A stretch of DNA of 64,000 nucleotides from Candidatus Omnitrophota bacterium (GCA_016928555.1 JAFGKM010000051.1:2315-66314), one strand, 5' to 3'. Numbered from the stretch's first letter, positions 3,687 through 16,288 are shown. Numbers and translations: made by a program. The notes: generated by a model not told the origin, from the letters alone.

Positions 3687-4703
3687 TTAAAGGTTGAAAA
3701 GGAGAGGCTGTTCTTTTTCGTCCATGATGAGCATGGCGGCTTTCAGCACCTGCTCGGGTTTGATTTTTTCAAGGCAGAGAAAATTTCTTCTGCAGTATTT
3801 TTTTGCCCTGCAGGGGAAACATTCAAGATTGCTGTGCACCACAATATTTTTTGTTCCAACGGGTCCGTACCTGTAGGGATTGCCGGGGCCGAATATGGCA
3901 ACCACAGGGCACTTTGCCGCTCCTGCCAGGTGCATATAGTCAAGACTGCCCGTGATTAGCAGGTCCGCCCTGTCCATAAGGGCGGCCGTTTCCTTCATGC
4001 CTGCGCCTGAATAATTGTAAACATGGCCGCCGCCGATGAGCGCTTTTATTTTTTCCGAGTATCTCCTGCTTTTTTCCGGACCGGCAAGGATAACCGTCGT
4101 TCCGTAAATTTCCATGAGCTCCTTAGCCGCCTTTGCGAATTTTTCGGCGGGCCACGGTTTTCTTCCCGCGTCCGCTCCCGGAGCAATGACGATAAATCTT
4201 TCCGAGCTTTTCACTCCGTCATTTTTCAGCCTCTCTGCCGCAGAATCCCTGTCCCGCGCCGTGACAGGGAAAAATACGCGCGGGGCGTCATCCCTGCCAA
4301 AGAAGGGTTCTATGAAATTCAGCGCAAGGTCTGACTCCATCGTGAAATTCTTGTCTGAGAAAAAATATTTCCAGAAAAAGGAAAGCCTGTATTTTCCCCG
4401 GAGGAAATAGGGCATGAGACGGCCTGAACCGAAGGACACGATTAAATCATATCTTCTTTTTCGCGCTTTTTTTAAAAACATGAAGGGGTTTCTGATGCTG
4501 TACGGGATGTAACTCCGGAAGAAAGGGTGTTCTGCGGCAAACTCAACCGCGGACGGACCTGCAACTATGTCCATCTCCGCCTCCCTGAAAGCTTCCTTTA
4601 TCTTTTTTATAGACGGAGTCAGCAAAAGATTGCGGGCAAGCGAATCCGAGCCGATGACAAGGATTTTTTTTATTTTAATGTCTTTAATATTTTTCGGGCA
4701 CAT
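3687..4703 (-). CDS. Glycosyltransferase family 9 (LPS heptosyltransferase-like)
   Basis: IAPGA..KPWP, MHLAGA, AIFGP, C-terminal CFPC..C..C. Confidence 0.8.
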   Translation of the reverse strand: MCPKNIKDIKIKKILVIGSDSLARNLLLTPSIKKIKEAFREAEMDIVAGPSAVEFAAEHPFFRSYIPYSIRNPFMFLKKARKRRYDLIVSFGSGRLMPYFLRGKYRLSFFWKYFFSDKNFTMESDLALNFIEPFFGRDDAPRVFFPVTARDRDSAAERLKNDGVKSSERFIVIAPGADAGRKPWPAEKFAKAAKELMEIYGTTVILAGPEKSRRYSEKIKALIGGGHVYNYSGAGMKETAALMDRADLLITGSLDYMHLAGAAKCPVVAIFGPGNPYRYGPVGTKNIVVHSNLECFPCRAKKYCRRNFLCLEKIKPEQVLKAAMLIMDEKEQPLLFNL

Positions 4704-5740
4704 TCTTCCGCCTCTCTGAGTTTATTGGATGAACGGCCGCCCGCCGTTTTTATCCTTTCATTTAGGGTATCAAGTCCGCATAATGGCAGGTATTCAGCAT
4801 AACCTTTTTCGGCAAATTTTTCAATAGTAAGGTCAAATATTAGTTTTCTCCGCTTCTTTCTTTCCACTCCAAGGATTATGACGGGTTTGCCGCAGGATGC
4901 GGCTTCAGAAATCATGTTTACGCTGTCTTCCGTGACGATTATAAGGTCGCAGAGAGACAGCATTCCGGGGTAATGCGACGTTTCGGAATATCCGGGAAAC
5001 TCGGAATATGCCGTTGAACGGCTCTCTTTCAAATAATTTTGAAGATAAAAGACAACTTCCATGCGCGTTCTTCTTGAGGTGGTATACAGGAAAACGCATT
5101 CTTTTTCATTTTTATGCAGTGCATCCAGAAGCTTTTTTATAAAATTCAGGGATATACCGTAGTTCTGGTCGTCGCCGCCGATGACAACCCCGACTTTTTT
5201 CTTGTCCGAGGGCAAGCGCATAATTTCTCCGAGCTTCATTTTTTCGTTCGCAAGAAAATCTTCGTTTATACGGTTGGTAGCTCCCATCGTTACAATGAGA
5301 TTGTTTAATCCTTTATTCTTTATTTTTAAATAATCGTGAAAAGGTATTACGAGAAAATCAAAAAATTTCAGGGGAACCATAGACGGCGTCATTATCTGGA
5401 CTGAGGCGGTTTTGTCGGATGTCTTACCCAGAAGGAGGTTTACCGGTGCAAGTACCGAGCCGGCGGAGATGATAATGTCAAAATTTCTGCCTGCGATTGT
5501 TTTTTGTTCTTTCAGCAGGCGCATCAACAGCTTTTCCCCGGGGTTCCACAGCCTCAGACAGCATAAGAACGAAAGCAGTTTTCCCGAAAGGGGATGGGTT
5601 CCTTTCCTTGACGGCAGGCGGTAGGAAGGGCCTTTCAGAGATACCCTGAATATCTCTGTTTTTCCCGCAAGGGCTTCCGCTATTCCCATCGCCTGGTTCA
5701 GGTTGCCTTTGATGCCGTCGTCCAATACAAGTATGTCCAT
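4670..5740 (-). CDS. ELM1/GtrOC1-family putative glycosyltransferase
   Basis: DGIKGNLNQ, PFHD, VIGG, TTSRRT, VTEDSVNMISEA. Confidence 0.85.
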   Translation of the reverse strand: MDILVLDDGIKGNLNQAMGIAEALAGKTEIFRVSLKGPSYRLPSRKGTHPLSGKLLSFLCCLRLWNPGEKLLMRLLKEQKTIAGRNFDIIISAGSVLAPVNLLLGKTSDKTASVQIMTPSMVPLKFFDFLVIPFHDYLKIKNKGLNNLIVTMGATNRINEDFLANEKMKLGEIMRLPSDKKKVGVVIGGDDQNYGISLNFIKKLLDALHKNEKECVFLYTTSRRTRMEVVFYLQNYLKESRSTAYSEFPGYSETSHYPGMLSLCDLIIVTEDSVNMISEAASCGKPVIILGVERKKRRKLIFDLTIEKFAEKGYAEYLPLCGLDTLNERIKTAGGRSSNKLREAEECARKILKTLK

Positions 5741-5766
5741 ATAAATATAGGGATTCTGGAAAGGCT

Positions 5767-5846
5767 AAATCCACCCTGACCCTCCTTTGCTAAAGGAGGG
5801 AAATTATTGTATCCCCCCTTTGGAAAAAGGGGAAATGGGGGGATTT
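5767..5846. repeat. 80-bp REP/MITE-like double-hairpin element (family A)
   Basis: aaatccaccctgaccctcctttgctaaaggaggg...cccctttggaaaaagggg...ggggattt; left half nearly identical to 37759-37794. Confidence 0.8.
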
Positions 5847-5867
5847 TTCCGCGTCACGTGTCATTAA

Positions 5868-6620
5868 TCAGCGGACTTCAAGTCCATGTTCCCTGAAGTA
5901 ATTTTTTATTTCCGCAATCGTGTATTTTCTGAAATGAAGGAGGGATGCGAGCAGTACCGCGCTTGCTTTGCCTTCCTTAACGATCGTTGACATATGTTCA
6001 AGAGTTCCAGCTCCTCCAGAAGCTATGACGGGAACGCGCACATTGTCGGCAACGGTTCTCGTCATTTGAATGTCGTAGCCTTTCTGCGTTCCGTCCATAT
6101 CTATGCTTGTAAGAAGGATTTCTCCCGCGCCCAGGCCTTCAACCTTCTTTGCCCATTCCTTGACTTCAATGCCGGTCGGGGTTTTGCCGCTTTCTATGCA
6201 CACTTCCCATCCGGAGGCGCTTTGTTTGCCGTCTATAGCCACGACTATGCACTGGCTTCCGAATTTTTCCGCGCCTTCTTTTATGAGCCCGGGGGTTTTG
6301 ACCGCGGAGGTGTTTATTGAAATCTTGTCTGCGCCGGCTTTCAAAAGTTTTTCTATATCCTGCAGGCTTGTTATTCCGCCGCCCACCGTAAGGGGTATGA
6401 AAACAACCTCCGAGACTTTCTTTACAACGTCAACCATTGTTTTCCTTCCTTCTATTGTTGCGCTGATATCAAGGAAAACAAGCTCGTCCGCTCTTTCCCC
6501 GCTGTAGAAAGCGGCGTGTTCAACGGGGTCGCCGGCTTCTATCAGGTTTTCAAAATGCACGCCTTTTACCACCCTGCCCTCTTTCACGTCCAGACACGGA
6601 ATTACTCTTATCGCAGCCAT
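5868..6620 (-). CDS. hisF: Imidazole glycerol phosphate synthase cyclase subunit
   Basis: [35 protein letters not shown]. Confidence 0.97.
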
Positions 6621-7228
6621 TTTCCCTCCAGAAAGTTTTTTAAGAAAAGGATGCCGGAATCGCCGCTTTTTTCGGGGTGAAACTGAACACCCGCAATGTT
6701 TTCCCTCCTGACGGCTGAAACAAATTCGTTACCGTAAAAAGTTTCCCCGATTATAACCCTTCTGTTTTCGGGAGCGGGATAGTACGAATGTGCAAAATAA
6801 AAATATTCGCAGTCAGGGATGTTTTTGAAAAGAGTTTCGCCGGGGGATGAGATTTTCACTCTGTTCCATCCCATGTGGGGAATCCTGAAAGCCCTGTCTG
6901 CAAAACTGAATTTTTTTACGCCTCCCTTTATCAAGCCGAAGCCGCCGCAGCTGCCTTCTTCGCTGTGGGAAAAAAGAAGCTGTAGCCCCAGGCATATTCC
7001 GAGGAAAGGCTTACCTTCTTTTATTCCGGTTATGAGAGGCTCGATTATTCCGGATTCAGTCAGGCTTTTCATGCCGTCGGCAAAAGCGCCCACTCCGGGG
7101 AGGATGACAATAGCCGCTTTCTTCAGGTCTGCCGCTTTTTCTATGACAAACGGCTCTTCGCCGCAGGTTTTCACTGCCGTAAAGACGCTGTGGATATTGC
7201 CGGCTCCGTAATTTACTATCCCTGTCAT
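6608..7228 (-). CDS. hisH: Imidazole glycerol phosphate synthase glutaminase subunit
   Basis: LPGVGAF, GICLG, PHMGWN, QFHPEKS; catalytic triad intact. Confidence 0.96.
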
Positions 7229-7301
7229 GGTAGTTATGAAAATTTCAGTTATATGCAAACTTCGTTTGCGCTATACTTTGTTAGAAATGGAATTAATACA
7301 G

Positions 7302-10300
7302 TTATTTATTTAAGTCTGCGTGATATTCCTGGAGACTTTTTACGCTGATTTTGTTTTCTTTCAGTTTTTTTATCGCAACCATTGTGGCTTTTGCCCCTGG
7401 AATTGTCGTTATAAGGGGAATATTTCTGTTTACGGCGATGTCTCTTATGGAAATGATGTCTTTTTTCGGCTTTTTGCCGGAAGGGGTGTTGATTATGATT
7501 GAAATCTGGTTGTTCTTCATGAAATCAACGACGTTCGGACGTTCTCCCTCGTAAACCTTGGGTATTATTCTTGCCGTTACGCCGTTCTCGTTAAGGATTT
7601 TGCCTGTTCCTGAACTTGCGAGAATCTCAAATCCTATGTCCTGGAAGCCTTTTGCTATGGCAACTACGGCTTTTTTGTCCTTGTCTTTTACGCTTATGAA
7701 GATTGTTCCGGAAACCGGAAGTTTCTGCCCCGCGGCGATCTGGCTTTTAGCGTATGCCATCTCAAAGGTTTTGTCCATTCCTATAACCTCTCCGGTTGAA
7801 CGCATCTCCGGTCCCAGAACCGCGTCTACTCCGGGGAATCTATTGAACGGGAAAACGGATTCTTTCACCGCAAAATAGTTGACGGATATTTCTTTTGTGA
7901 ATCCGAGTTCCTCAAGTTTTTTCCCCGTCATTATCTTCGTGGCGAGCTTGGCGAGGGGGACGGCTATCACCTTGCTTATGAAGGGGATGGTTCTCGATGC
8001 CCTCGGATTGACCTCCAGCACGTATACCTTGCTGTTTTTGACGGCATACTGGACGTTTATGAGACCCTTGATTTTCAGCTCGAGGGCGAGTTTTTTTGTC
8101 GCTGTTTCAATCTCTTTCACGATTTTTTTGTCGAGACTGTATGTGGGAAGAACCATGGCGCTGTCGCCTGAGTGCACGCCCGCTTCTTCTATGTGCTCCA
8201 TAATGCCGCCTATGACGCACTCTTCACCGTCGCATATGGCATCTGCATCCACCTCTATGGCGTCCTCAAGAAATTTGTCTATAAGGACAGGCCTTTCCTG
8301 AGATACGTCCACGGCTTTTTGCATGAACGATTCAAGCGTTTCCCTGTCATATACTATTTCCATCGCCCTGCCTCCAAGGACATAGGATGGCCTTACAAGA
8401 ACGGGGTAGCCGATTTTTTCTGCTATTGCCGCCGCCTGCTCAAAGGATGTTGCCGTCCCGTTGGGCGTCTGTTTTAACGAGAGTTTTTCAAGCAGCTGCC
8501 GGAAGAGCTCCCTGTCTTCGGCGGCGTCAATGGCCTCGGGGCTTGTTCCGAGTATGTTGATTCCTTCTTTCTGCAGGGGGATGGCAAGGTTTAAGGGGGT
8601 CTGCCCTCCGAACTGGAGAATCACGCCTATGGGTTTCTCTTTTTCCACTATATTGAGCACGTCTTCAACGGTGATAGGTTCAAAATAAAGCCTGTCCGAC
8701 GTATCGTAATCCGTGCTTACGGTTTCAGGGTTGCAGTTGACCATGATGCTTTCGTAGCCGTCTTCCCGCAGAGAGAATGAGGCGTGCACGCAGCAATAGT
8801 CGAATTCAATCCCCTGGCCTATGCGGTTAGGCCCTCCTCCCAAAATAACAACCTTTTTCTTTTTCCCCTGAACTGCTCCGGAGTCATGTTTTTCATTGGA
8901 GGAATAATAGTAGGGTTTTTCCGCAGGATATTCGCCGCCAACGCTGTCAACCGGCTTGAATACGGATGCAATGTTCTCTTTTTTTCTTTTTTCCCTCACT
9001 TCTTTTTCGGAGGAGTTCATAATGAAGGATATCTGCCTGTCGGAAAAACCCGATTTTTTGGCTTTCTCCAGTATTCCCGCAGGCAGTGCGTTTACGCCTG
9101 AATACCTGTAAAGTTCTTTTTCCATTTCAATAATCCCTTTTATGTTGTGAAGAAACCACGGGTCAATTTTTGAAAGGCCGTAGATTTCATCAACGCTCAT
9201 GCCTGCAAGCATCCCGTAGCGCAGGTAAAAGAGCCGTTCATCGTCCGGGACGGATATTTTTCTCGCTATAAGCTCTTTCTCTTCTCCCGTGAATTGATGG
9301 TTTATGTCCCAGACGTCTTTTTTATCCGAACCGAGTCCGTACCTGCCTGTTTCAAGGGACCGCAGTCCTTTCTGAAGGGCTTCCCTGAAGTTTCTGCCGA
9401 TGGACATTGCTTCACCTACGGCTTTCATGGATGTTGAAATCGTTTTATCCGCCGCCGGAAATTTTTCAAATGTGAACCTCGGGATTTTAAAGACGCAGTA
9501 GTCAACGGTGGGCTCCGCAAAACAGGTTGTCTTTCCCGTTATCTGGTTGTCTATCTCTTCCAGCGTCAACCCTACGGCAAGCTTTGTCGCTATTCTCGCT
9601 ATGGGGAAACCCGTGGCTTTTGAAGCAAGGGCGGAGCTTCTGGAAACCCTTGGGTTAACTTCAATTATAACCACCCCGCCGTCTTCGGGGTTCACGGCAA
9701 ACTGTATGTTCGCGCCGCCTACAACGCCGATTTTTCTTATGATTTTCTTTGAGAGGTTCACAAGGTTTGCGTATTCTCTAAGGCTTAAGGTCTGGGCAGG
9801 CGCCACAACTATGCTGTCGCCGGTATGTATGCCCATGGGGTCTACGTTTTCCATGGATGTGACCATTATTACGCTGTCGGCGCTGTCTCTCATAACCTCA
9901 AATTCTATCTCTTTCCAGCCGAGGACGGATTGTTCTATCAGCACCTCGCTTATCGGACTCGTGTCCAGGCCGAATTCAAGCTTTTTTTCAAGCTCTTCAA
10001 TGTTGTAGGCGACGGAGCCGCCCGTCCCTCCGAGAGTGTAAGCAGGCCTAAGAACCAAAGGGAATCCGAGCTTTTTCCCTATCTCAAGTCCGTCTTTGAG
10101 GTTGTAGGCGAGCGCGCTTGCGGGAACTTCTATGCCGAGTTCGGTCATTGCGTTTTTGAAAAGCTCCCTGTCTTCCGCCATGGCTATCGCGGATATGTCC
10201 GCTCCGATTACCTCTACGCCGTATTTTTCAAGGACTCCCTCTCTTGAAAGGAAGGTTGCGAGATTCAGCCCCGTCTGGCCGCCGAGCGTGGGCAGAAGCG

Positions 10301-10553
10301 CGTCCGGACGCTCCTTTTCTATTATTTTTGCGAGGAGTTCAACCGTCAGAGGTTCAAGATAGGTTATGCCGGCCATTTCAGGGTCGGTCATAATAGTCGC
10401 CGGGTTGCTGTTCACCAGAAGCACCTCATACCCCTCTTCCTTCAGCGATTTGCATGCCTGCGAGCCGGAATAGTCAAATTCGCATGCCTGTCCTATTATA
10501 ATAGGTCCGGAGCCAATAATCATTATTTTTTTAAGGTCTTTTCTGTGAGGCAT
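7302..10553 (-). CDS. carB: Carbamoyl-phosphate synthase large subunit
   Basis: [35 protein letters not shown], duplicated ATP-grasp, MGS tail; 1083 aa. Confidence 0.98.
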
Positions 10554-10554
10554 T

Positions 10555-11580
10555 TTACCTTCCTTTTATCAGAGAGAAAAACTCTTTGAAATTGACATCC
10601 CGGGGCAGAAAGCTCGTAGACATCATCCTCATGTCCTCGTCATACTGCCCTTCCTCGGTATCATCGTTGATATTGACAAACCTTGCCGTTTTACCCGCAG
10701 ATTTCTTTTCAAGGGACAGGCTGTGGCTTTGTTCCGTTATACAGCACCTGTTTTCCTTTGTGTCCGAGACAGGATGGTTTATGCCGTAATGATTCAGAAT
10801 ATCCCCGGAGATTTTTCTCCCCGAGGCAATGCCGGCGGCAAGATGCCCCGTCCCTGCTCCGAAAACGGGTATCCTGCCGAGGAATTTTTTTATAACTGAG
10901 GCGGCCTCCTCTATGACGGCCGGGTTTTCGGGTCCGGATGTGACGTATATTCCCGAGGCGCCGGCCATTATCTCGTCTCTTTCCGGCGCGCCCGGCGGGA
11001 AAAAAATCCAGTCAAACTCGGAATTTTTCAGCGCCGCGGTTTCGCTTTTCTTTACGCCGAGGTTGATGACGGCTATGTAAGGTCTGCCGGTTTTGAGAAT
11101 ATCCTGTTTCGTTTTGACCTGGGCGCAGGCAATGCCGGAGTTCTTCTTCATTTCTTTGAGAACCTTTTCGGTTTCAATGTCTGCCGGAGCGATTCCTGCC
11201 GCCATTCCCCTCCTGTTCCGTATTATCGCAGTCAGGTACTGCGTATCGGAACCTTCAAGCATTGATACGGGCTTGTCCTTCAGAAAATCTGCCAGAGAAC
11301 ATTGCGCCCTGAAGTTGCTGTAAATCTCGCTGTATTCCGAGATTATCACCGCCGAGGGAAAAACCTCTTCCGTTTCCGTGTCCTCATAGTTTATGCCGTA
11401 ATTTCCTATGAGAGGATAAGTAAAACAGACTATTTTGCCGGAGTACTCAGGGGAGGTCAGAACTTTTTCGTATCCCACGACGCGGGTGTCGAAAACCAGC
11501 CTTCCCGTTTTAACGCCTTTTCCGGAAATAATAGTCCCTTCAAAAATTTCCCCGGTTTCAAGAACAATTTTGCCTTTCAT
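10555..11580 (-). CDS. carA: Carbamoyl-phosphate synthase small subunit homologue with degenerate glutaminase site
   Basis: N-domain [10 protein letters not shown]; GAGTGHL replaces GICLGHQ and SFLPR replaces QxHPE. Confidence 0.85.
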
Positions 11581-11584
11581 GATG

Positions 11585-12919
11585 TTATAATTCCCTCTCT
11601 TTATCTTTTATCCTCTTTCCCGTAAAGCAGGAAAGGCATAGATGGTTTGCGGGCAGTCCTACTGCGCCTATGAAATCTTCAAGAGAGTTGTATCTCAGGG
11701 TATCGGCGCCTATCTTTTCCCGTATGCCCTCAAGAGAAAGCCTTTTGGCCGCAAGCTCCCTGTAAGAGCGGGTGGAGATGCCGTAGAAACACGGCGCTAT
11801 GAGCGGAGGACAGGCTATTCTCACATGGACCTCTTTTGCTCCCGCATGCTTGAGTTCCATGACTTTGAACTGTATCTGCGTCCCTCTTACGATGGAATCG
11901 TCGCACAGGACTATCCTTTTCCCCTTGACGTTTTCTTTTATTACCGACAGTTTTATGCGGGCCTCCTCGTCCCTGCTTTCCTGTGTGTGCCTGGTATAGC
12001 TTCTGCTGGCGAACCTGTCCAGAAGAAAAACCTCCTGGTAAGGTATTTTTGACTCCTTGTGGTAGCCCAGTGCGCATCCTATGCCGGACATCGGGACCGG
12101 CGCAACTATGTCGGCCTCAATTTTTCCGTCTTTTTTCGCAAGCCTTGAACCGAAGTTTTCGCGGACCCTTATAACTGGTATGCCTTCAATTATAGAGTCG
12201 GTGGAGGCTATGTATGCCCATTCAAAAGCGCAGAATGCGGGATGCCCGTTTTTTACTCTGGCAAGAGTTTTTACGCCGTCTTTATTTATGAAGACGATTT
12301 CTCCCGGTTCAACGTCCCTGTGCAATTCCAAGCCCAGCAGGTCAAACGGCCTTGATTCGGACGAAACGGCAAACCGGTTTTTCCCTTTTCCAAGTATCAG
12401 CGGTTTGAAGCCGTAAGGGTCCCTTGCGGCATAAATGCCGCTTTTTGTGAGAATGACAAGACTGTAGGCGCCTTTAACTTTACTGCTCAGATTTGCTATC
12501 CCCGTAAGAAAGTCCTTTTCATAGGAGATTAATTTGCCGAGAAGTTCAATATCCGTTTCGCTGTTGAAAGAATGGCCTTTCTCTTTCAGCCCGGCTCTCA
12601 GCTTCTTTCCGTTCATTATGTTGCCGCTGAACGCTATTGCGAATTTTCCCATGCGGGATATTAAAAAAATGGGCTGGCGTTCTTTTAAGCTGACGTGCCC
12701 TATTCCCGAGAAGCCTTTCAGGCAGCGGATTTCATCTTCCGAAAAGGTATGCCTTACAAAACCCTTGTGGGTTGTAAGATAGATGTTCCCGGAACGGGTG
12801 GCTATTCCGCAGTATCTCTGTCCGCGGTGCTGAAGCTTGAAGATTCCGTAATAAACGTCTTTGGCCGCATTTTCCCTGCCGGCATTGTACAAACCGAAAA
12901 TTCCGCAGTTCTCATCCAT
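11585..12919 (-). CDS. purF: Amidophosphoribosyltransferase (Fe-S type) with divergent glutamine site
   Basis: CGIFG, LQHRGQ, RDPYGFKPL, DDSIVRGT; Fe-S Cys in CAFE, PCFYG and CLSC. Confidence 0.92.
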   Translation of the reverse strand: MDENCGIFGLYNAGRENAAKDVYYGIFKLQHRGQRYCGIATRSGNIYLTTHKGFVRHTFSEDEIRCLKGFSGIGHVSLKERQPIFLISRMGKFAIAFSGNIMNGKKLRAGLKEKGHSFNSETDIELLGKLISYEKDFLTGIANLSSKVKGAYSLVILTKSGIYAARDPYGFKPLILGKGKNRFAVSSESRPFDLLGLELHRDVEPGEIVFINKDGVKTLARVKNGHPAFCAFEWAYIASTDSIIEGIPVIRVRENFGSRLAKKDGKIEADIVAPVPMSGIGCALGYHKESKIPYQEVFLLDRFASRSYTRHTQESRDEEARIKLSVIKENVKGKRIVLCDDSIVRGTQIQFKVMELKHAGAKEVHVRIACPPLIAPCFYGISTRSYRELAAKRLSLEGIREKIGADTLRYNSLEDFIGAVGLPANHLCLSCFTGKRIKDKEREL

Positions 12920-12937
12920 TGTGAATTTTTCAGATTA

Positions 12938-13876
12938 TTAAATGTATTCTATGGTGCTGGGTGGTTTCGGCGTTATGTCGTAAACGACTTTGACGACTTC
13001 CGGGACTTCTTCCAGAATCCTGTCGCGTATCTTGTAAAGAACGGGCCACGGAATCTTTGACGGCTGCGCCGTAAGCGCGTCTTTGGAATTAACGGCCCTC
13101 ACGGCGATAATATCTCCGTAGACTCTTTTACCGTTTACCATTCCGGTGGCTCTGTCCGACATAAGAACGGCAAGAACCTGGAATATGCTCTCGCCCGTTA
13201 TGGCAGTTTCCACGATTTTGGTAGCCTTGCGGACTTTTTCAACCCGTTCGGGAGTAACCTCGCCTATTATCCTGGTAGCCAGCCCGGGGCCGGGAAACGG
13301 TTTTCTGTCGGCGAATTTTTTTGGCATGCCGAGTTTTTTTGCGACTTCACGGACCTGATGTTTATATATTTCCCTCAACGGCTCAACTATTTTTAATCCG
13401 AAATGCGCCGGGTTTATTCCTATCTGCGAGAGCACGTTGTGCTGTGTTTTTATTCCTTTCTGCGTTTCGGCTATGTCCGCGGCTATGGTCCCCTGTATGA
13501 GGAAATCCACGGAATAGCTCTTGACCGCCTGTCCGAGGGTTTTATAGAAGAGGTCCCGGAAAACTATCCTTTTTTCCTCTGGGTCGGTCTTGCCTTTTAA
13601 GCCATCAAAAAACTTGTCTTTGACATCCCATATCTGCAGTTCAATGCCCGCGTTATCAAAAAACTTCCGTATCTCTTCAGGCTCTCCCTCCCTCATGAGC
13701 CCGTCGTCGAGAAAAAGCACTATGATGTTGCCGCCGAGGGCTTTTCTGGCAAGCATGGCGCACGTCATGCTGTCGACTCCTCCCGAAACGGCTATAAGCG
13801 TCCTTTTTGTCCTGCTGATTTTTTTCTGAAGCTCTTCGGTTTTCTGGTTGATGAATTTTACGGCCGCAAAACTCAT
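12938..13876 (-). CDS. guaA: GMP synthase ATP-pyrophosphatase subunit only (GuaAB-type)
   Basis: SGGVDS PP-loop, DPEEKR, PFPGPGLA, YDITPKPPSTIEYI; 312 aa with no GATase domain. Confidence 0.9.
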   Translation of the reverse strand: MSFAAVKFINQKTEELQKKISRTKRTLIAVSGGVDSMTCAMLARKALGGNIIVLFLDDGLMREGEPEEIRKFFDNAGIELQIWDVKDKFFDGLKGKTDPEEKRIVFRDLFYKTLGQAVKSYSVDFLIQGTIAADIAETQKGIKTQHNVLSQIGINPAHFGLKIVEPLREIYKHQVREVAKKLGMPKKFADRKPFPGPGLATRIIGEVTPERVEKVRKATKIVETAITGESIFQVLAVLMSDRATGMVNGKRVYGDIIAVRAVNSKDALTAQPSKIPWPVLYKIRDRILEEVPEVVKVVYDITPKPPSTIEYI

Positions 13877-13895
13877 GTTATTCTCCTTTACATTT

Positions 13896-13980
13896 AAGCG
13901 TATGGCGTATAGCGTTTAGCGTATAGTTAAAAGCTTTTAAGCTTCTAATTGTATTTTCTATGCGCTGTACGCTATCCGCT
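13896..13980. repeat. Heptamer-based inverted repeat element (family B)
   Basis: gcgtatg/gcgtata/gcgttta units, then complementary ctatgcg/ctgtacg/ctatccg units; shares 23 nt with 33589-33611. Confidence 0.75.
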
Positions 13981-14042
13981 GTTTTTATAAGGGGTTTCGT
14001 TTTATCAGCTTAGTTTCTCCATGGGGCGTTCTTTAAAGATTA

Positions 14043-14072
14043 ATTATAACATTCATGGAAACAGCGCGTCAA
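14043..14072 (-). promoter_or_regulatory. Putative sigma70 promoter of the guaA-purF-carAB operon
   Basis: TTGACG-18 nt-TATAAT with extended -10 TG. Confidence 0.6.
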
Positions 14073-15129
14073 AACCTTTTTTTCCTCCCGACAAATCCGT
14101 AAGAACGGCGTTAATCTTCAAATAAAAAAGAGGAATACCCTCGGGAAATTTCCCTTCCAGCTTGACATAATCCTTTTCAGTCGCAACTATATAATCCGTT
14201 TTCTTTCTCATGAACAGGCCGGTCAATTCGGCAATGTCAAAATCCCTGTAATTGAAGTGGTCCGGATATGCGGCCGCATATATTCTGTCAGGCGACAATT
14301 TGAAAAGAAGATGGAAAAAATTCATGGGGTTACCTATTCCCGCCGCCGCAATAATCCTTTTTCCGCAGACTGAAGAGGCGGGAATTTCAATTTCGGAATT
14401 TTTCAGGCACTCAATCTCATAATCCATGACAAATACGGGCCTTTTGAACCGGTCAAGGTAAGATACAAGCGTTTTTCTCTCCTTCTCTCCTGCCATATAC
14501 GGGTGCGTAAGCACAAAAACGTCCGCTCTTTTCAGTGAACCGAGCGGTTCTCTGAGCATCCCCGAAGGGATAACCCTTTTATTGTCAAAGGGGTTTGACA
14601 TATCCAGCAAGAGAATGTCAGCATCCCTGTATATTCGGCGGGAATGGAATCCGTCGTCTATCACGGCCGTATCGCCGGGCCTATTCATCTTTTCTTCCAG
14701 TTTTTTTATCTCCGCTGGATTTTTTGAGGCCAAATACAGTCCCGGGAAATTTCTGCCCATCATCCGGATTTCGTCGGCAGTTCTGGAAGAAGGCGCCGCC
14801 CCGGATGATAAAACGGCAATCCTGCGCCCTTTTTCCCTCAAGGTTTTGACCATGCCCATCACCATAGGCGTTTTTCCCGTACCGCCGGAAACAATGTTGC
14901 CTGCGCTTATGACCGAAAAACCGAATTTTTCAGGGGTAGTAAAAAGTCTCTTAAGGAAAATTGACGCAAGATAAAAAAGGGTGAAAGGAAGCAGGTATGC
15001 CGAAAGAATTTTAAAAAACAGCGATTTTCTGCGGAACAGGAACCTTCTATAGAAAAAATTAAAAAAGGGTCTGCTCGTTCTCAGAGACGCGGTTTCCAAG
15101 AGGTATTTCAACTTTTCCGAATTCTCCAT
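14053..15129 (-). CDS. lpxK: Tetraacyldisaccharide 4'-kinase
   Basis: GNIVSGGTGKTP, DDGF, PSGMLRE, AGIGNP, PDH, TEKDYVK; start uncertain. Confidence 0.88.
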   Translation of the reverse strand: MENSEKLKYLLETASLRTSRPFFNFFYRRFLFRRKSLFFKILSAYLLPFTLFYLASIFLKRLFTTPEKFGFSVISAGNIVSGGTGKTPMVMGMVKTLREKGRRIAVLSSGAAPSSRTADEIRMMGRNFPGLYLASKNPAEIKKLEEKMNRPGDTAVIDDGFHSRRIYRDADILLLDMSNPFDNKRVIPSGMLREPLGSLKRADVFVLTHPYMAGEKERKTLVSYLDRFKRPVFVMDYEIECLKNSEIEIPASSVCGKRIIAAAGIGNPMNFFHLLFKLSPDRIYAAAYPDHFNYRDFDIAELTGLFMRKKTDYIVATEKDYVKLEGKFPEGIPLFYLKINAVLTDLSGGKKGFDALFP

Positions 15130-16288
15130 CGTATCCAGGTACAATTTTTACTCTCCCTTTTCTGACCGCCCGTATCCCCTCAATGATATTTTCGTCTATT
15201 TTGCCGTACATCTCTTCTTCGGGAATTTCAAGAAGAACGGACAGTTCGGTTCCGAACCGTTCGATAATTTCTTTATATTTGTTTCTTACAAGAACGGAAT
15301 CAGGCTTTTTCCCAAGTATGCTGCCTATTATCTGGTCAAGGGGGACAAGTTTTTTGAAAGGGATGAACCTGTCGGGTTTTTCTCCGTATTTTCTGTCGGA
15401 GAGTTCACATACCCTGTTCATTACACCTATCGTGACCTTTCTTCCGCAGACCGGGCACAGATTGTTGTTTTTTCGCGTTTCCTCCGGGGAAAGGCACAGA
15501 TTGCAGTTCCTGTGGCCGTCAAAGTGGTATTTTCCCTCTTCCGGGAAGTATTCAACGGTTGATAGGAATTTTCCGCCGTCCTTGCTTTTTAATATGTTTT
15601 TCAATCCGGGCAGGTCAAATTTTCCGCCGAATATGTTGGCTTCCCTTCCGATTTTAGCCGCCGAATGCGCGTCGGAATTGGAGATAAATGAAAACCTGTC
15701 CAGAGAAGAGACCATCCAGTTCATTGCCGGGTCGCTGCTCAAGCCCGTTTCAAGCGCAAAGATTTCGGAAGCCATGTCTCCGAAACATTCCTGGATGGAA
15801 TCAAAACCGGAGTTGGAGCCGAAGAGGGAAAAATGGGGCGTCCAGATGTGGGCGGGTACCACGAATCCCTTTTCATCTGCGTCTTTTACTATTTTCACGA
15901 GCTCTTTCGCCTCCATCTGCAGTATCGGCCTGCCGTCGGCGTTTATGTCTCCGTAGCGCTCAAGCACTCTGTTAAGCTTATCGGCTCCGGCAAATGAGGA
16001 GAGAAAAAGGATGTTGTGTATTTTTTTCACCTTCCCTTTCTCGTCAAAAATGTTGCACGCTTCCCCCGTAAGGATAAAATCAATGCCTCCGTATTGATAA
16101 ATGCCTTCCCTGTCAGTCTCCTTGAAGAGGTTGGTTAATTCGTGGAACCACAGAAAGTGGGTTATATCGCCGGTGCCGAGAAGGTTTATTCCTTTATATT
16201 TAGCCCAGCGCGCCAGTTCGGGTATCTCCATGTTTTTGCTTGTGGCGCGGCTGTATTTTGAATGTATGTGAAAATCCGCTATGTACAT
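15059..16288 (-). CDS. Endonuclease Q family PHP-domain protein
   Basis: ADFHIHSKYSRATS, PAHIWTP, SNSDAHS, GKYHFDGHRNC, CPVC, PGYDGEFG. Confidence 0.88.
   Translation of the reverse strand: MYIADFHIHSKYSRATSKNMEIPELARWAKYKGINLLGTGDITHFLWFHELTNLFKETDREGIYQYGGIDFILTGEACNIFDEKGKVKKIHNILFLSSFAGADKLNRVLERYGDINADGRPILQMEAKELVKIVKDADEKGFVVPAHIWTPHFSLFGSNSGFDSIQECFGDMASEIFALETGLSSDPAMNWMVSSLDRFSFISNSDAHSAAKIGREANIFGGKFDLPGLKNILKSKDGGKFLSTVEYFPEEGKYHFDGHRNCNLCLSPEETRKNNNLCPVCGRKVTIGVMNRVCELSDRKYGEKPDRFIPFKKLVPLDQIIGSILGKKPDSVLVRNKYKEIIERFGTELSVLLEIPEEEMYGKIDENIIEGIRAVRKGRVKIVPGYDGEFGKVEIPLGNRVSENEQTLF

Follow-up and report, generated by a model that had tools for sequence, protein, structure and literature searches.

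A bacterial operon of glutaminase-deficient GuaA, PurF and CarA paralogues as a candidate ammonia-using set beside canonical glutamine-dependent enzymes

Glutamine amidotransferases are the textbook route by which nitrogen enters nucleotides. In the window analysed here, a stretch of 64,000 nucleotides (GCA_016928555.1, JAFGKM010000051.1:2315-66314) from an uncultured sediment bacterium whose close relatives are recorded as Candidatus Omnitrophota or Ratteibacteria, the minus strand carries an operon, guaA'-purF'-carA'-carB, in which the three amidotransferase paralogues, marked by a prime, have missing or altered glutaminase sites next to retained synthetase motifs. These genes are clustered in related genomes and under purifying selection, their altered sites are conserved, and they coexist with a canonical, glutamine-dependent set. 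The proposal that the operon encodes a second, glutaminase-less set working on free ammonia beside the canonical one is given about even chances; its benefit would be the ATP of glutamine synthetase saved where ammonium is plentiful, and its products would serve purine, pyrimidine and arginine synthesis.

The operon is read in the order guaA' (12938..13876; 312 amino acids), purF' (11585..12919; 444 amino acids), carA' (10555..11580; 341 amino acids) and carB (7302..10553; 1083 amino acids), with gaps of 18, 4 and 1 nucleotides between the open reading frame (ORF) calls. A preliminary description of this DNA had reported the same tight packing, and its coordinates and gaps were exactly reproduced. 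It had also held the synthetase motifs to be intact, as is the case for the phosphoribosyl pyrophosphate (PRPP) motif DDSIVRGT and the four 4Fe-4S cysteines of PurF' and for the PP-loop SGGVDS of GuaA'.

CarA', the small subunit of a carbamoyl-phosphate synthetase (CPS), has lost its whole catalytic triad, in agreement with the same description. Against CarA chains of E. coli and the canonical CarA of the source genome, it aligns with Gly at the nucleophile Cys (FGAGTGH) and Leu and Arg at His and Glu (SFLPRD), with eight residues missing near the C-terminus. The protein includes a CPSase_sm_chain domain (PF00988, 119 bits) and a weak match to the glutamine amidotransferase (GATase) domain; it fails the model of glutamine-hydrolysing CarA (TIGR01368, 229.9 bits against a cut-off of 307.35) and passes the looser NF009475 (238.8 against 221). 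A comparison set of 65 related genomes from five families yielded 80 CarA family matches, 77 of them readable, the other three being fragments missing the site. Gly stands at the nucleophile in 27/27 CarA'-type sequences from 26 genomes, only two of which retain the His, and the full Cys-His-Glu triad is present in 50/50 canonical CarA. As an outgroup control, the triad is intact in 31 of 33 CarA from other phyla, the two exceptions, from a Bacillota and a Dethiobacteria metagenome-assembled genome (MAG; L066 and L068), having a Gly nucleophile and carA next to carB. Christensenellales CarA (37% identity; L060, L087) were considered as further dead copies and rejected, their triads being intact. 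A CarA' profile was also searched against 1.84 billion representatives, and among the 150 best clusters, which were read, the nucleophile Cys is missing in 73 (Gly in 54) and the full triad is present in 72; the 73 of 150 is not a frequency because the CarA' profile favours Cys-less proteins. Judged from these sequences, CarA without its nucleophile is widespread and reaches beyond the source phylum. A Cys-less CarA record from Limnochordia bears the public name 'glutamine-hydrolyzing'.

The dead subunit is predicted to dock on the N half of CarB. The modelled CarA'-CarB N half complex scores 0.83, against 0.01 for the best of three controls, with at least 96% of contacts in common between runs and a partner pLDDT (predicted local distance difference test) of at least 87. 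Of 80 solved complexes, 58 attain the mark used for such scores, as do 2 of 110 mismatched pairs, counts that are only approximate here as a custom alignment was used; as the E. coli CPS complex is already solved, a pass may reflect likeness only. Thirty-four positions are invariant in CarA', including the Gly at the former nucleophile site and the NH(Y/F)G-N-PV and IT-Q-H motifs of the old pocket, and 15 of these 34 fall within the predicted 45-residue CarB interface, where 4.5 would be expected (hypergeometric p = 2e-6). The large subunit itself is complete, passing TIGR01369 with 1475.9 bits against 1027 and displaying all Pfam domains, that is two ATP-grasp halves, the oligomerisation domain and the MGS-like domain. 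The triad being lost, the CarB-binding surface kept and CarB fully conserved, the pair is proposed to be an ammonia-dependent carbamoyl-phosphate synthetase, in which CarA' would be retained because it still binds CarB and, as a pseudo-glutaminase, forms part of its ammonia entry.

Such an enzyme would be a two-subunit analogue of the mitochondrial CPS I (PDB 5DOU/5DOT, 6UEL), which likewise combines a glutaminase-like part without a working nucleophile with a full synthetase and whose substrate is ammonia; CarA' matches its N-terminal region with E = 1.7e-29. In CPS I, however, the dead part belongs to one fused polypeptide, whereas here it is a separate subunit from which the whole triad is gone, and the bacterial carrier has a live CarA as well. 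A dependence of CPS I on N-acetylglutamate is mentioned in PMC4655335. A laboratory counterpart also exists. E. coli CarA mutants of Cys269 have lost glutamine use and retain ammonia-dependent synthesis, and the E. coli chains 1C30/1C3O have Ser where other E. coli chains have Cys. The position replaced in these laboratory-made mutants is the same, but their His and Glu are intact, whereas the change in CarA' is natural, fixed in all 27 sequences and in most accompanied by loss of His and Glu.

GuaA' consists of a PP-loop and a GMP_synt_C domain only. The reported absence of a GATase domain is thus borne out by Pfam, in what is a known architecture, that of the archaeal two-subunit guanosine monophosphate (GMP) synthases. 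Its TIGR00884 score of 323.1 bits lies just below the cut-off of 338.75, and among solved structures it is closest to 2DPL (278.5 bits) and 6JP9 (266.2 bits), with bacterial two-domain enzymes reaching at most 207 bits. GuaA' equals the archaeal subunit B (P. horikoshii 2DPL/3A4I, M. jannaschii 6JP9) in length and domains, and differs from it in the lid motif, which is IK(T/S)HHN in archaea (IKSHHN in the solved subunits) and IKTQHN in 119/120 members of the GuaA' family, as well as in the C-terminus, KPP(S/G)TIE(Y/F)(I/V) in the family and KPPSTIEYI in the window protein. Archaeal GMP synthases also have a glutaminase, subunit A, for which nothing comparable was found here: with the TIGR00888 model, only the two-domain GuaA exceeds the cut-off in the source genome (TrpG reaches 95.6 bits against 172.15), and no protein does in five relatives searched with the same models, which does not prove absence. 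A further difference from the archaeal system is that 39 of the 57 carriers of GuaA' also have a two-domain GuaA. According to PMC10526850, ATPPase subunits of GMP synthetase use external ammonia, isolated archaeal subunit B does so in vitro, and the M. jannaschii subunit has a Km(NH4+) of 4.1 mM with a kcat equal to the glutamine-driven one. GuaA' would, in the same way, aminate adenyl-XMP (adenylated xanthosine monophosphate) with external ammonia. Public records of GuaA' relatives (59-94% identical, some labelled Altiarchaeales or Firmicutes) are named 7-cyano-7-deazaguanine synthase/QueC, ExsB family regulator or ATP-binding protein, and these names look like misannotations.

PurF', an amidophosphoribosyltransferase paralogue 40% identical to the canonical PurF of the source genome, passes TIGR01134 narrowly (352.9 bits against 350). 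Aligned to B. subtilis PurF (1AO0) and to the canonical copy, the window protein displays an eight-residue deletion that takes out Arg73 and Tyr74 and a replacement of Asn101 by Ser, and it retains Cys1, behind a four-residue propeptide (MDEN|CGIFG), together with Arg26, Gly27 and Asp127; its 4Fe-4S cysteines are of the B. subtilis type. The loss of glutamine-binding residues reported earlier is therefore real for the first three positions, but the nucleophile and the other three residues are still there. Fifty-one family members chosen from 120 listed, spanning 54-81% identity, share the deletion of the glutamine loop (51/51, five residues instead of the canonical 13), while Asn101 is replaced in 43/51 and Asp127 in 32/51; the PRPP aspartates and the four 4Fe-4S cysteines are retained in 50-51 of the 51. 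As described in PMC7953260, R73 salt-bridges the glutamine carboxylate and Y74, with Ile335, forms a wall of the NH3 channel, and PMC3261824 mentions that E. coli PurF without Cys1 can still use ammonia. Without Arg73 and Tyr74, glutamine should no longer be used in the normal way and the PRPP site should lie open, so that ammonia could reach PRPP directly in an enzyme without its glutamine-binding, channel-walling loop. A related case is found in Crenarchaeota (Brown et al. 2011, PMC3261824), where a second PurF paralogue, also called PurF', is encoded close to purine genes, has an impaired glutamine site and has been proposed to use ammonia; compared by site features, the crenarchaeal proteins of that source are without the N-terminal Cys, whereas the bacterial family has it in 51/51 and has the loop deleted.

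The set is neither a peculiarity of one genome nor in decay. Orthologues share the degenerate sites, the same changes being common to five families, so that the isolated decayed copies once considered as an explanation are not what is seen. PurF' (59-100% identity) occurs in 45/65 genomes, 36 of which have both types and nine PurF' only, and canonical PurF (37-44% identity) in 51/65, with 15 genomes having the canonical type only and five neither. Gly-CarA' is present in 26/65 genomes (both types in 19, Gly-type only in seven) and canonical CarA in 49/65 (alone in 30). Stand-alone GuaA' is found in 57/65, as the only form in 18 and with a two-domain GuaA in 39, the latter enzyme occurring in 45/65. 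Clustering of the three genes in relatives, which the preliminary description had named as a check, is observed: 23 of the 26 genomes with Gly-CarA' also have PurF', and in 21 of these 23 purF' and carA' are neighbours; guaA' lies next to purF' in 17 genomes. The order lpxK-guaA'-purF'-carA'-carB-hisH-hisF, whole or in a contig-limited part, is seen at eight loci and at L096; L095 has the same order with purF' missing, and L105 reads guaA'-purF'-hisH-hisF with no carA'-carB between. The adjacency of lpxK and guaA' is found at L051-L055, L058, L095, L096, L105 and L116.

All four operon genes are under purifying selection. By the Nei-Gojobori method, applied to three genome pairs with unsaturated synonymous divergence (dS), the ratio of nonsynonymous to synonymous divergence (dN/dS) is 0.04-0.07 for guaA', 0.06-0.07 for the whole of purF' (0.06-0.09 in its N-terminal nucleophile (Ntn) domain, 0.02-0.075 in its phosphoribosyltransferase (PRTase) domain), 0.11-0.25 for carA' and 0.04-0.065 for carB, with 0.14 for hisH as a live neighbour; an absence of selection, which had been kept in view, is thus not found. 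CarA' keeps 47-81% identity among relatives where carB keeps 77-94%, and so evolves faster than its neighbours while being clearly constrained.

The organism as such is not glutamine-free, contrary to what a glutamine-independent synthesis would imply. Contig C46 carries, on the minus strand (L019:3424-14183), purL-purQ-purF-carA-carB(N half)-pyrG-guaA, with scores well over the cut-offs and intact sites, including those of PurF, CarA and a two-domain GuaA, and two glutamine synthetase genes are present (C46:40199-41197 and C65:38128-39126), one of them about 6 kb from the canonical cluster. An intact canonical cluster with two glutamine synthetases makes the operon a parallel set, whose paralogues share 31-40% identity with their canonical counterparts. 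The C46 cluster gathers most glutamine amidotransferases of nucleotide synthesis. A second purL (791 amino acids; 23% identical to the canonical one, 450 bits, under the cut-off) lies on contig C29 (L102:5947-9441, minus), where this very divergent purL' adjoins the only purM of the genome and has no purQ of its own; it was found in 11/65 related genomes, and in G061 the gene after it encodes a CarA that has a Gly nucleophile but retains His and Glu.

Being parallel does not make the operon redundant. The canonical carB of contig C46 is an N half only, which stops cleanly past the oligomerisation domain (...YYSTYE), and neither a separate CarB C half nor a carbamate kinase was found in the source genome, which is 94% complete. 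The only C half found there is that of the window carB, hence the lack of redundancy. Split carB genes are known from Aquifex and Methanocaldococcus, and a likeness to them is seen in the canonical cluster of other genera of this phylum, where carA-carBN-carBC-guaA includes separate N and C halves, the latter distinct (L097, L101, L110). The situation differs in the genus of the window and in two sister genera, where no separate C half was seen and the C half is found solely in the full-length carB beside CarA'. The N halves of full-length CarB beside CarA' form one clade spanning three families (SH-aLRT, a Shimodaira-Hasegawa-like approximate likelihood ratio test, 99), and split N halves beside a live CarA form a distinct clade (SH-aLRT 99), which indicates that the enzyme with the dead subunit is an old paralogue and no recent accident. 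The C-half tree (SH-aLRT 84-85) is too weak to tell whether the full-length carB arose by fusion with the canonical C half, or whether an exchange took place. A third type of full-length carB (52-54% identical), without adjacent carA, is seen at L104 (G028) and L107 (G025), in genomes that also carry the split canonical enzyme.

Several observations weigh against an ammonia-run set. Cys1, Arg26, Gly27 and Gly102 are invariant in 51/51 PurF' members, and the Ntn domain is constrained as much as the PRTase domain, whereas an ammonia-only enzyme should not need a glutaminase nucleophile; the invariant Cys1 is left unexplained by the use of ammonia. The parallel glutaminase loss put forward in the preliminary description accordingly stands as far as sites are changed in all three proteins, but an invariant Cys1 is not what plain loss predicts. 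The ammonia Km of such enzymes is, according to PMC10526850, usually millimolar or higher, and since the glutaminase of solved GuaA' relatives binds only transiently, an unrecognised GuaA' partner could exist. It is also unexplained how a live CarA and a CarB N half work without a C half, and the two sets may interact. Genomes with prime versions only are no more than suggestive of a pathway run by the prime enzymes. Five genomes with PurF' as their sole PurF, G027 (93% complete), G023 (90%), G062 (93%), G021 (91%) and G019 (83%), lack a two-domain GuaA and show CarA of the Gly type only; four of them have purD. However, as canonical genes are clustered and MAGs are incomplete, one lost contig explains each such case; nine PurF'-only genomes of 45 is about the number expected from genome incompleteness, and in G010 the canonical purF lies at a contig end.

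The invariant residues of PurF' lend weight to the idea, held to be rather unlikely overall, that PurF', and perhaps the whole set, still takes amide nitrogen as an active Ntn hydrolase with a rebuilt pocket for glutamine or another, non-amino-acid amide. Besides these residues and the low dN/dS of the Ntn domain, such an enzyme would fit the family's own conserved residues near the old site (THKGxVRHTF, SLK(D/E)RQP and SESRxF, the last being SESCAF in canonical PurF) and the loss of this Cys in the crenarchaeal PurF' proposed in PMC3261824 to be ammonia-dependent. On the other hand, the residues holding the carboxylate, amino group and oxyanion of glutamine are deleted or mostly replaced, the deleted loop is the channel wall too, and, measured against the PRTase domain, the Ntn domain is somewhat less conserved (mean pairwise identity 0.57 vs 0.74) than it is in canonical PurF from this phylum (0.67 vs 0.74), the two taxon sets being unmatched. 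A bolder form, considered improbable, starts from the invariant nucleophile left behind after all glutamine recognition was deleted: PurF' may have been adapted to some other amide donor, small or anionic. At its boldest, this donor would be carbamoyl phosphate or carbamate from the neighbouring CarA'-CarB, and the operon would then be an ATP-driven line for ammonia capture and delivery, not simply a set that uses ammonia.

Supply of ammonia by a glutaminase in trans, either canonical CarA on the full-length CarB or HisH or TrpG for GuaA', with CarA' in a regulatory or place-holding role, also appears improbable. It is consistent with the canonical carA adjoining a carB N half alone in a genome where no other C half or carbamate kinase was found, with an intact hisH after carB (in G028, hisH directly follows guaA'-purF'), and with the merely transient association of two-subunit GMP synthases noted in PMC10526850. 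Nevertheless, CarA' itself is predicted at the CarB site, to which its invariant residues map, and HisH and TrpG score far under the subunit-A cut-offs. PurF is not known to have a separate glutaminase subunit, and the shared glutaminase suggested as an option in the preliminary description gained no support beyond the intact HisH of the same operon. Chemistry of another kind, with other acceptor substrates or a pathway outside purine, pyrimidine and arginine synthesis, seems very unlikely: the scores of GuaA', PurF' and CarA' at or below curated equivalog cut-offs, the altered GuaA' lid and C-terminus, and the long coexistence with canonical copies (36/65 genomes for PurF), suggestive of non-redundant functions, would agree with it, but substrate-site motifs are retained in all three synthetase parts, CarB is a strong equivalog, the genes are grouped with carB and hisHF, and some genomes show prime versions only, plus purD. 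Finally, that these are redundant copies heading for loss is contradicted by the data and hardly credible. Canonical copies do exist in the same genome and CarA' changes at two to four times the rate of carB; every frame is open, however, dN/dS is 0.04-0.25, the site changes are common to five families and synteny is conserved.

Past carB, the operon extends into hisH (6608..7258, minus; TIGR01855, 210 bits against a cut-off of 105.4) and hisF (5868..6620, minus; cyclase subunit, TIGR00735, 350.7 bits against 294.55), both intact and overlapping by 13 nucleotides. The hisH product retains its Cys/His/Glu triad (GICLG, FHPE), and its true start is likely the ATG 30 nucleotides within the ORF. 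An Elm1-like gene (PF06258; 4670-5740, minus) lies directly downstream of hisF, and in the distant relative G062 a gene of similar size (L112:3678-4772) stands two genes upstream of hisF. On the other side, lpxK (14053..15144, minus; PF02606), the conserved neighbour upstream of guaA', is probably a separate transcription unit, and a 409-amino-acid ORF without Pfam match (15059-16288, minus) lies upstream of lpxK, overlapping it by about 85 nucleotides. As to the single promoter match reported earlier, a sigma-70-like match of 11/12 plus TG (TTGACG-18-TATAAT; 14043..14072, minus) is indeed found and is the best of the region 4500-15500; lying 167 nucleotides 5' of guaA' and overlapping the end of lpxK, it is a match to consensus only, one of 18 in the scanned region against 10.7 +/- 3.4 in shuffled sequence. 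No riboswitch or leader came out of Rfam, whether the entire window was scanned at gathering scores or 13700-14300 with E values of up to 1. Among sequencing runs, one DNA run, a possible source of this DNA, is listed with the window sequence and no RNA run is; two RNA runs of the same study are nearly devoid of its sequence words.

Each element of the operon has a known analogue, namely CPS I, archaeal subunit B and crenarchaeal PurF'. In the open-access literature, queried with limited sets of terms, no bacterial family of triad-less CarA, no Cys-retaining, loop-deleted PurF family and no operon joining these with a stand-alone GuaA beside a canonical set was found. A phylum-level group of uncultured sediment bacteria keeps glutaminase-less versions of up to three of these enzymes, often in one operon, usually beside the normal versions and under purifying selection. 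Names such as 'glutamine-hydrolyzing', QueC and ExsB on such proteins lead metabolic reconstructions to misstate nitrogen use, and the invariant Cys1 of PurF' raises a sharp and testable enzymological question. If the set is run by ammonia, these energy-limited anaerobes could, at high ammonium, supply purine, pyrimidine and arginine synthesis without passing through glutamine synthetase, and CarA'-CarB would be a natural bacterial counterpart of CPS I.

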